A stretch of 64,000 nt of DNA from Escherichia coli (GTDB lineage Bacteria; Pseudomonadota; Gammaproteobacteria; Enterobacterales; Enterobacteriaceae), in assembly GCF_044324875.1 (NCBI RefSeq), contig NZ_CP172185.1; one strand, written 5' to 3'. Positions 11,120 through 14,927 of the stretch are shown in pieces (the first letter of the stretch is position 1; each line of letters begins with the position of its first letter). The notes below the pieces were generated by a model that saw only the letters and a program-made list of their open reading frames with translations, searched no databases and was not told the DNA's origin. Made by a program: the position numbers and the translations under genes.

Positions 11120-13098
<1,979 letters not shown>

Positions 13099-13100
<2 letters not shown>

Positions 13101-14238
13101 GTCAGAGCCCCTCGATCTCAATCAGTTAGCGCAAAAAATTAAACAGTGGGGGCTGGAACTGGGCTTTCAGCAGGTAGGTATTACCGATACCGATCTCAGC
13201 GAGTCCGAGCCCAAACTGCAAGCATGGCTGGACAAACAATACCACGGAGAAATGGACTGGATGGCGCGTCACGGTATGCTGCGCGCTCGCCCCCATGAGT
13301 TATTGCCCGGTACGCTGCGCGTGATCAGCGTGCGGATGAATTACCTTCCTGCTAACGCCGCATTTGCCAGCACGCTGAAAAACCCTAAGCTCGGCTATGT
13401 GAGCCGTTATGCGCTGGGCCGTGACTATCACAAACTTCTGCGCAACCGACTCAAAAAGCTGGGCGAGATGATTCAGCAACATTGTGTTTCGCTGAATTTT
13501 AGACCGTTTGTCGATTCTGCGCCTATTCTCGAGCGCCCGTTAGCTGAAAAAGCTGGGCTCGGCTGGACAGGTAAGCACTCACTTATCCTCAATCGCGAGG
13601 CCGGTTCATTCTTCTTTTTAGGCGAATTGCTGGTCGATATTCCGCTGCCCGTGGATCAACCAGTCGAGGAAGGATGCGGTAAATGCGTGGCCTGTATGAC
13701 GATTTGCCCGACCGGAGCCATCGTCGAGCCATATACCGTCGATGCTCGCCGCTGTATCTCTTATCTCACCATCGAACTGGAGGGGGCGATCCCGGAAGAG
13801 TTGCGACCGTTAATGGGAAACCGTATTTACGGTTGCGATGACTGCCAGCTTATCTGCCCGTGGAATCGCTATTCGCAACTCACTACAGAAGACGATTTCA
13901 GCCCGCGTAAGCCGCTACACGCACCGGAACTCATTGAGTTATTCGCCTGGAGTGAAGAGAAGTTTTTAAAAGTCACGGAAGGTTCGGCGATTCGCCGTAT
14001 AGGTCACCTGCGTTGGCTGCGTAATATCGCCGTAGCATTAGGCAATGCCCCCTGGGATGAAACGATTTTGACAGCGCTGGAAAGTCGTAAAGGTGAGCAC
14101 CCACTTCTCGATGAGCACATAGCGTGGGCGATTGCGCAGCAAATCGAGAGGCGAAATGCGTGCGTGGTCGAAGTGCAATTACCGAAAAAACAGCGTCTGG
14201 TTCGGGTGATTGAAAAAGGGTTACCGCGTGACGCCTGA
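13099..14238 (+). CDS. queG: Epoxyqueuosine reductase QueG
   Basis: ORF with 4Fe-4S Cys cluster motifs (CGKCVACMTICP, CDDCQLICPWN); start at ATG 13099 (MSEPLDLNQ...). Confidence 0.9.
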
Positions 14239-14507
14239 TTCATCCACAGCTTGTGAATAAAAATAAAAACACATTGCAATTCAAGACGAATAAAATCGTC
14301 AAGTGATCGACTCGACAAAACGGAATCTTAATTTTCAACCTATATATCAATAAGTTAAAAAAATACTATTCACCGTGCGAAGTTTCTTTGAAATTAAGAT
14401 TACGGCCTGAGGCTGTGGATAACTCTGTTTACAAGAGTTTGTCAGAGACAACAAAAACCAGCAATAACGCATTGCGTCGCTGTGGATATTTTATTGAGAG
14501 AAGAATT

Positions 14508-14583
<76 letters not shown>

Positions 14584-14618
14584 TTGGGTGGTCTGTGCTT
14601 TACAGCACTTTCAAATTT

Positions 14619-14694
<76 letters not shown>

Positions 14695-14851
14695 TTAATC
14701 TTCGTCTTTCGAACCGCTACTGCCTTGGCTGCCTTCACTCACCTTAGTCACTTACTTTTGTAAGCTCCCAAGGATTCGTTCAGTTGCCGCCTTGTCGCAA
14801 TTCGAAATACTGCGATTGGGTGGTCTGTGCTTTGCAGCACTTTTCAAATTT

Positions 14852-14927
<76 letters not shown>

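Follow-up and report, generated by a model that had tools for sequence, protein, structure and literature searches.

The divergent queG and nnr genes of Escherichia coli share overlapping start codons and carry candidate promoters in each other's coding sequence

In the 64-kb stretch of Escherichia coli chromosomal DNA analysed here (the window), the divergent genes queG and nnr start within a single CATG palindrome and their coding sequences overlap by 2 bp. The overlap is real and conserved, and it is already present in standard annotation. The overlap of the two transcripts, the double-stranded RNA (dsRNA) and the assignment of queG-nnr to the excludon class have also been published. What is added here is the assignment of specific motifs embedded in the codons of each gene, together with the observation that these motifs freeze synonymous sites, rare codons included, across the family; this makes the pair a neat illustration rather than a discovery. 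The explanation that we consider best overall, and probably correct, is that of a head-to-head pair sharing the CATG, in which all signals would be embedded in the partner's codons, the promoters would face each other across about 413 bp and the dsRNA is cut by RNase III.

Results

The two start codons share two bases

Direct reading of positions 13098-13101 gives C-A-T-G, a palindrome that carries both start codons. The features at this junction are the following.

13099-13101, plus strand: queG ATG (sequence)
13100-13098, minus strand: nnr ATG (sequence)
13099..14238, plus strand: queG coding sequence, epoxyqueuosine reductase, 379 aa and stop (ORF, Pfam; stop at 14236-14238)
11553..13100, minus strand: nnr coding sequence, NAD(P)HX epimerase/dehydratase, 515 aa and stop (ORF, Pfam, RefSeq)

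With the annotated starts, A13099 and T13100 are common to both start codons, and the two head-to-head coding sequences share these bases at their 5' ends, as the earlier note had read from the sequence alone. RefSeq agrees with this reading. In the RefSeq/PGAP annotation of K-12 MG1655, queG (4392928..4394067, minus strand) and nnr (4394066..4395613, plus strand) show the identical 2-bp overlap, and the same is true of the RefSeq annotation of DH1 and of strain GN25, the nearest to the window. The 515-aa frame of Nnr sits within a 522-aa ORF (11553..13121).

The gene names used in that note also proved right, both by Pfam domains and by RefSeq naming. Nnr consists of a YjeF_N domain (PF03853, residues 40-199, E 5e-45) followed by a carbohydrate-kinase-like dehydratase domain (Carb_kinase, PF01256, residues 257-496, E 1.5e-85), and the structures of T. 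maritima Nnr match it. QueG carries a QueG_DUF1730 domain (PF08331) and the double 4Fe-4S domain Fer4_16 (PF13484), and it matches the B. subtilis QueG structure 5d08 with an E value of 2e-49. Locally, amiB, tsaE and nnr lie in this order on the minus strand and are followed by queG on the plus strand and, after it, by three tRNA-Gly genes. According to Conway 2014, nnr is the first gene of the operon nnr-tsaE-amiB-mutL-miaA-hfq and onward.

The three tRNA-Gly(GCC) genes occupy 14508-14927 (minus strand). The spacer before the third one measures 157 nt in the window and in GN25 versus 36 nt in K-12; the lineage of the window thus carries about 121 extra bp, inserted between glyX and glyV.

Conservation of the junction

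A CATG palindrome is trivial in itself, because just a C ahead of an ATG is needed, and C precedes ATG in roughly a quarter of start codons. What goes beyond chance here is the presence of an antisense ATG in frame with the conserved 515-aa ORF, combined with a strong Shine-Dalgarno sequence and with conservation. The locus was fetched from 80 Enterobacteriaceae species, the N-termini of both proteins were mapped by tblastn, and these sequences were aligned with that of the window (n = 81). The offset between the nnr and queG starts was identical to that of E. coli in 76 of the 80 species. The CATG was kept in 80 of the 81 aligned sequences; the exception was Salmonella enterica subsp. arizonae, which has CATT and then ATG directly. 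The queG ATG (13099) and the 379-aa length of its product were found in all 81 sequences. A Pantoea genome (Erwiniaceae) also keeps the in-frame CATG geometry, and there the gene caller picked a later Met.

Among complete E. coli genomes, 5425 of 5426 were matched by the 1-kb stretch around the junction at 95-99.7% identity. The 91-bp core of the junction was identical in 4530 of these 5425 genomes, and the 1-kb flank reached at least 99% identity in only 17.

Distant QueG homologues were obtained from a representative-protein search, with matches at about 55% identity or less, and the neighbouring genes were read at two of four chosen loci. In both of them (54% and 46% identity), the gene lies directly head-to-head with tsaE-amiB, at distances of 40 and 20 nt. 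Both junctions carry a perfect TATAAT, one in the gap and the other within the first tsaE codons. This suggests that the tight junction between queG and the operon is older than the Enterobacteriaceae, two loci being an anecdote.

Overlapping transcripts and double-stranded RNA

The transcript starts used here are second-hand: they come from one RNA-seq operon map, that of Conway et al., as cited in the table of another paper. In the form relayed by PMC7373196, this map contains a plus-strand operon with its promoter at 4391701, its terminator at 4408049 and a 413-bp overlap classed as "Divergent"; the end of the overlap is given as 4392114 in Table S1 of Huang 2020 (PMC7373196; U00096.2 coordinates). 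Conversion from U00096.2 to the window was fixed by the 22-mer CAUGACGGACCAUACAAUGAAG (4392087-4392109) and by the K-12 record, with the following result.

13101..13488, minus strand: nnr 5' leader, 388 nt, antisense to queG codons 1-130 (Conway promoter 4391701, U00096.2, converted)
13075..13098, plus strand: queG 5' leader, about 24 nt, start at about 13075 (+/-1) (Conway overlap boundary 4392114, U00096.2, converted)
13075..13488, both strands: two-strand transcribed region, 413-bp sense/antisense overlap, source of RNase III-cut dsRNA (published maps)

The nnr transcription start thus maps to A13488, 388 nt upstream of the nnr ATG, and the queG transcript boundary to 13075, 24 nt upstream of the queG ATG.

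The region has been recovered repeatedly as dsRNA. Huang et al. 2020 (PMC7373196) reported a p19-captured cluster, "yjeS, yjeF, 5' overlap", at 4391754-4392109 (U00096.2) among the top 20 coding clusters of stationary phase, and an exponential-phase cluster at 4391759-4392107 (Table S1). The p19-captured duplexes were 21-22 nt long, with both strands about equal, in exponential and stationary phase (PMC7373196). The same Table S1 relays locus MS-212 (4391717-4392100) from the independent dsRNA-antibody work of Lybecker et al. The ExcludonFinder analysis (NAR 2025, PMC12288877) counts only 16 divergent excludons in MG1655, queG-nnr among them, called in at least 50% of its RNA-seq samples, and yjeV-queG-nnr is one of the three non-contiguous operons that it lists. 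The published data contain two features of a divergent excludon, namely 5'-overlapping transcripts from opposite strands and dsRNA processed by RNase III.

The 3' end of queG is also covered on the other strand. The gene of the 17-aa small protein YjeV lies there in antisense orientation (14221-14274, minus strand), as identified by homology to K-12 yjeV (4392892-4392945). A published RNA-seq analysis classes yjeV-queG as a convergent excludon (PMC12288877), and the listings of yjeV-queG and yjeV-queG-nnr imply read-through antisense to the whole of queG.

The two leaders were searched for known elements. A preQ1 riboswitch in the queG leader was rejected because 24 nt are too short, and an Rfam search of 12700-13800 returned only a sub-threshold ilvB-OMG match (17 bits versus a gathering score of 96) and no known riboswitch or leader RNA. 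The queG Shine-Dalgarno sequence is weak or not clearly present, with a mean duplex energy of -2.6 kcal/mol. Within the leader, the AUG nearest the 5' end would be an out-of-frame one at 13089-13091 (plus strand), 10 nt ahead of the queG start; it opens a 17-codon ORF (13089-13142, plus strand) that overlaps this start. This AUG is found in 72 of the 81 sequences, and its conservation does not constitute independent evidence because it is the complement of nnr His4. On the nnr side, the leader opens with an ORF of 60 aa (13482..13300, antisense to queG), which was discarded because neither its start nor its length is conserved (1-118 aa, mostly 10 aa).

Conserved -10 motifs in the partner's codons

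Extended -10 promoters carry a TG one base upstream of a -10 hexamer close to TATAAT, start transcription 6-8 nt downstream and can dispense with a -35 element. The candidate signals found around the queG/nnr junction are listed below.

13059-13067, plus strand: candidate queG promoter, extended -10 TGG-TATACT (TGGTATACT), found by conservation, 7 nt upstream of the published transcript boundary
13501-13496, minus strand: candidate nnr promoter, -10 TAAAAT, invariant in 81 of 81 sequences, 7 nt upstream of the published start
13113-13108, minus strand: nnr Shine-Dalgarno sequence GAGGGG, from queG codons 4-5 (CCC CTC), 7 nt before the nnr ATG

The candidate queG element is made of T13059, G13060, a g and TATACT (13062-13067); the hexamer matches the consensus at 5/6 positions and, with its TG, has the form of a sigma-70 extended -10. 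On the opposite strand, these bases spell nnr codons Ser12 (AGT), Ile13 (ATA, a rare codon) and Pro14 (CCA). The TGTGGTATACT motif was present in 78 of the 81 sequences, and nnr codons 12-14 (AGT ATA CCA) were 100% codon-invariant among the sequences that have those residues. Codons 1-4 of nnr were codon-invariant too, and codons 5-11 varied freely in amino acid. The invariance of codons 1-4 is not assignable to one cause, since these bases encode Nnr residues and also belong to the queG leader.

The candidate nnr -10, TAAAAT, also matches at 5/6 positions, and its best -35, TAGGCG, is unconvincing. It corresponds, on the opposite strand, to queG codons Asn133 (AAT), Phe134 (TTT) and Arg135 (AGA, a rare codon). 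A two-hexamer sigma-70 scan of 12600-13600 returned no site. As neither proposed promoter has a good -35, the motifs were located by conservation and by the published starts, and both published boundaries, once converted, fall 7 nt downstream of the conserved -10 motifs. The yjeF, yjeE, amiB and mutL genes have been found to be transcribed preferentially by the sigma-70 holoenzyme in vitro.

Synonymous variation was measured codon by codon as normalised third-position entropy over the 81 sequences and averaged in 5-codon windows. While the mean for queG was 0.685, the lowest window (codons 130-134, 13486-13500) scored 0.012 and covers most of the TAAAAT and the seven bases after it. The second-lowest one (codons 3-7, 13105-13119) scored 0.046 and covers the GAGGGG of nnr, whose duplex with the 3' end of the 16S RNA has an energy of -7.2 kcal/mol in nearly all species. 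The GAGGGG is kept in four Kosakonia species although Met1 of Nnr is out of frame there; part of its conservation may serve something besides the ribosome-binding site of Met1.

The earlier note had argued that, for lack of intergenic space, both promoters must lie inside the partner's coding sequence. This is supported by the position of both -10 motifs in partner codons, by the agreement of the published transcript ends and by the near absence of synonymous variation in the 81 sequences. We strongly infer that the embedded motifs are the active promoters of queG and nnr.

Other constrained segments of queG and nnr

Two more islands of near-zero synonymous variation were observed in queG, at 13567-13584 (codons 157-162) and 14089-14103 (codons 331-335). 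Their sequences, ACAGGTAAGCACTCA and AAAGGTGAGCACCCA, are identical to each other at 12 of 15 positions, and the motif occurs nowhere else in the window. The nnr transcript start is 79-96 nt downstream of the first island, and the second island holds a Shine-Dalgarno-like AGGTGA 7 nt before an in-frame TTG. Both were compared with promoters, regulator sites and known RNAs, and they fit none of these.

In nnr, a strong dip of synonymous variation was found at 11994-12029 (codons 358-369, minus strand; AACCTGCTGGCAATC...GATAAGCGTCACAAT). It might be a promoter of tsaE-amiB inside nnr, TGGCAA-17 nt-CACAAT; many internal promoters have been reported for the nnr-tsaE-amiB operon, which would agree with this reading. 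Synonymous variation was also suppressed at 11601-11615 (nnr codons 496-500). The tsaE gene begins shortly downstream of this segment and overlaps the last 29 nt of nnr (11553-11581). The suppressed segment is presumably the ribosome-binding region of tsaE and would be a second case of signals written in nnr codons.

Choice of the start codons

The queG frame is open back to position 12991 in the window. QueG could then begin further upstream, either at GTG 12991, which gives a 415-aa ORF, or at another in-frame codon, and the overlap of the coding sequences would far exceed 2 bp. A 384-aa QueG that starts 15 nt upstream is indeed annotated in some records of Salmonella and Citrobacter rodentium. 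In E. coli, however, the codon at -15 is ATT and not ATG. Moreover, the transcript boundary at about 13075 lies downstream of GTG 12991, the nearest upstream in-frame stop shifts from -9 to -240 nt among species with no upstream start conserved, and native B. subtilis QueG (5d08) begins, in the alignment, opposite residue 6 of the E. coli protein. The transcript boundary, the B. subtilis N-terminus and the unconserved upstream starts rule out the 415-aa form, and it is extremely improbable that QueG begins upstream of ATG 13099 at all.

Two observations concern the Salmonella records themselves. RefSeq is inconsistent between a 379-aa and a 384-aa QueG in Salmonella and Citrobacter rodentium, and in Salmonella nnr codon 6 also lies in a CATG palindrome (AACATGAAG), which creates an in-frame queG ATG 15 nt upstream.

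For nnr, the competing start is the sixth codon.

13085-13083, minus strand: alternative nnr start, Met6 ATG, 510-aa product; sole usable start in four Kosakonia species

If E. coli Nnr were translated from Met6, the two starts would stand 12 nt apart (13086-13097) and the CATG would have arisen by chance from the sequence around the queG start. In the four Kosakonia species, one inserted nucleotide (+1 nt) shifts Met1 out of frame, which means that the equivalent of Met6 must be used there. Codon 6 is ATG, GTG or TTG in most species, a pattern that resembles that of a start codon, although M/V/L exchange at this position is also an ordinary conservative substitution. Residues 1-11 of Nnr are outside the Pfam YjeF_N domain, which begins at residue 40, and residues 5-11 are poorly conserved. 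On the other hand, the Shine-Dalgarno sequence of Met6 is weak (-3.2 kcal/mol), compared to -7.2 kcal/mol at ideal spacing for Met1. In about 23 of the 81 sequences, codon 6 is GAG, CTA, CTG or ATA without any other start nearby, so that Met1 must be used in them, and the Met1 frame is kept in 76 of the 80 species, even through a 12-nt insertion. Taken together, these comparisons argue that Met1 is probably the main start of Nnr in E. coli and that initiation at Met6 is unlikely there.

Direct records of the start codons were sought as well. No E. coli Nnr structure was found that would reveal the N-terminus of a construct, and no start-codon entry for nnr or queG was found in the TetRP supplements (searched by name, b-number and coordinate), in TRAINSPOTTER or in the Salmonella riboproteogenomics paper. 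The architecture of the junction would be unchanged even if Met6 were used, since 12 nt are too short for a promoter. The caution of the earlier note, that the overlap depends on preferring the annotated-length starts to longer in-frame ORFs, was thus a fair one: it is lifted for queG by the exclusion of the 415-aa ORF, and for nnr it leaves Met1 favoured over Met6 but unproven.

Discussion

Since there is no spacer between queG and nnr, all their expression signals have to be written into the partner's codons. In the mechanism that we propose, the queG promoter in nnr codons 12-14 (TGGTATACT) would start a leader of about 24 nt, and the nnr promoter in queG codons 133-135 would start the 388-nt leader, with the ribosome-binding site of nnr in queG codons 4-5. 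With each promoter embedded in the other gene, the two would face each other across about 413 bp. As a consequence, polymerases would meet head-on. The complementarity of the two mRNAs takes in the ribosome-binding site and the start codon of each gene, and the mRNAs pair into the dsRNA that, in the published data, is cut by RNase III.

The overlap may have a regulatory effect, in the form of mutual dampening, or it may simply be tolerated. The chances are roughly even, in our judgement, that it is functionally neutral and a by-product of compaction, the pairing and the RNase III cutting being tolerated noise that affects neither protein. The need to express each gene would explain the conservation of the embedded signals without any cross-talk. 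Furthermore, such dsRNA is common from divergent E. coli pairs, which make up 13 of the top 20 coding clusters (PMC7373196), and reciprocal regulation of queG and nnr is not reported in the dsRNA and excludon literature (PMC7373196, PMC12288877). However, with head-on promoters 413 bp apart and fully complementary ribosome-binding sites, some interference is physically likely. The queG/nnr dsRNA cluster is among the most abundant (PMC7373196), and in distant bacteria queG again lies closely head-to-head with the tsaE operon, 20 and 40 nt away from it.

At its strongest, mutual dampening would make the junction a conserved reciprocal switch, by which queG and nnr-tsaE-amiB-mutL-miaA-hfq would restrict each other's output by means of RNase III and of colliding polymerases; we regard this as distinctly improbable. 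If it were true, the recurrence of the tight queG/tsaE arrangement in distant bacteria would reflect selection for cross-talk and not compaction. In this respect, queG belongs to queuosine tRNA modification, and the operon led by nnr holds two further genes of tRNA anticodon-loop modification as well as hfq.

The arrangement resembles several known systems. Face-to-face promoters act as developmental switches, with measured interference, in coliphage 186 (pR/pL) and in lambda (PR/PRE). As in these phages, the facing promoters of queG and nnr would be a few hundred bp apart, and collisions and antisense RNA are expected. Short start-codon overlaps that are conserved between species are also known between genes of the same strand, as ATGA 4-nt and 1-nt overlaps. 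These lie on one mRNA and couple ribosomes, whereas queG and nnr are on opposite strands, which makes translational coupling impossible, and the consequence of their overlap is antisense.

Divergent excludons, a concept that comes from Listeria and for which an E. coli catalogue exists (PMC12288877), are alike in that neighbours on opposite strands have 5'-overlapping transcripts and give dsRNA cut by RNase III. The excludon concept is defined functionally, by mutually exclusive expression, whereas queG-nnr was placed in it from RNA-seq data. In addition, the queG/nnr overlap takes in both start codons and both ribosome-binding sites and not the leaders alone. The asd-yhgN, rsd-nudC, cpxR-cpxP, plsB-dgkA and rob-creA pairs (PMC7373196) fall into the same 5' overlap class, with abundant p19-captured dsRNA. 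At asd-yhgN the overlap is between the 5' ends of the transcripts, whereas the coding sequences of queG and nnr touch, share 2 bp and would hold every signal.

These findings leave the current understanding of queG and nnr unchanged. They do bear on how the two genes can be manipulated: the 5' end of queG or of nnr cannot be recoded synonymously, deleted or tagged without disturbing the partner gene, and a clean deletion of queG removes the promoter and the leader of an operon that contains the essential tsaE, plus amiB, mutL, miaA and hfq. In addition, queG/nnr could serve as a simple system in which to ask whether the divergent excludons of E. coli regulate anything. Finally, the rare codons ATA in nnr and AGA in queG appear to be frozen family-wide because they spell the neighbour's promoter, and in this sense queG/nnr shows, as clearly as a textbook example, that bacterial coding sequences can be loaded with information of a second kind.
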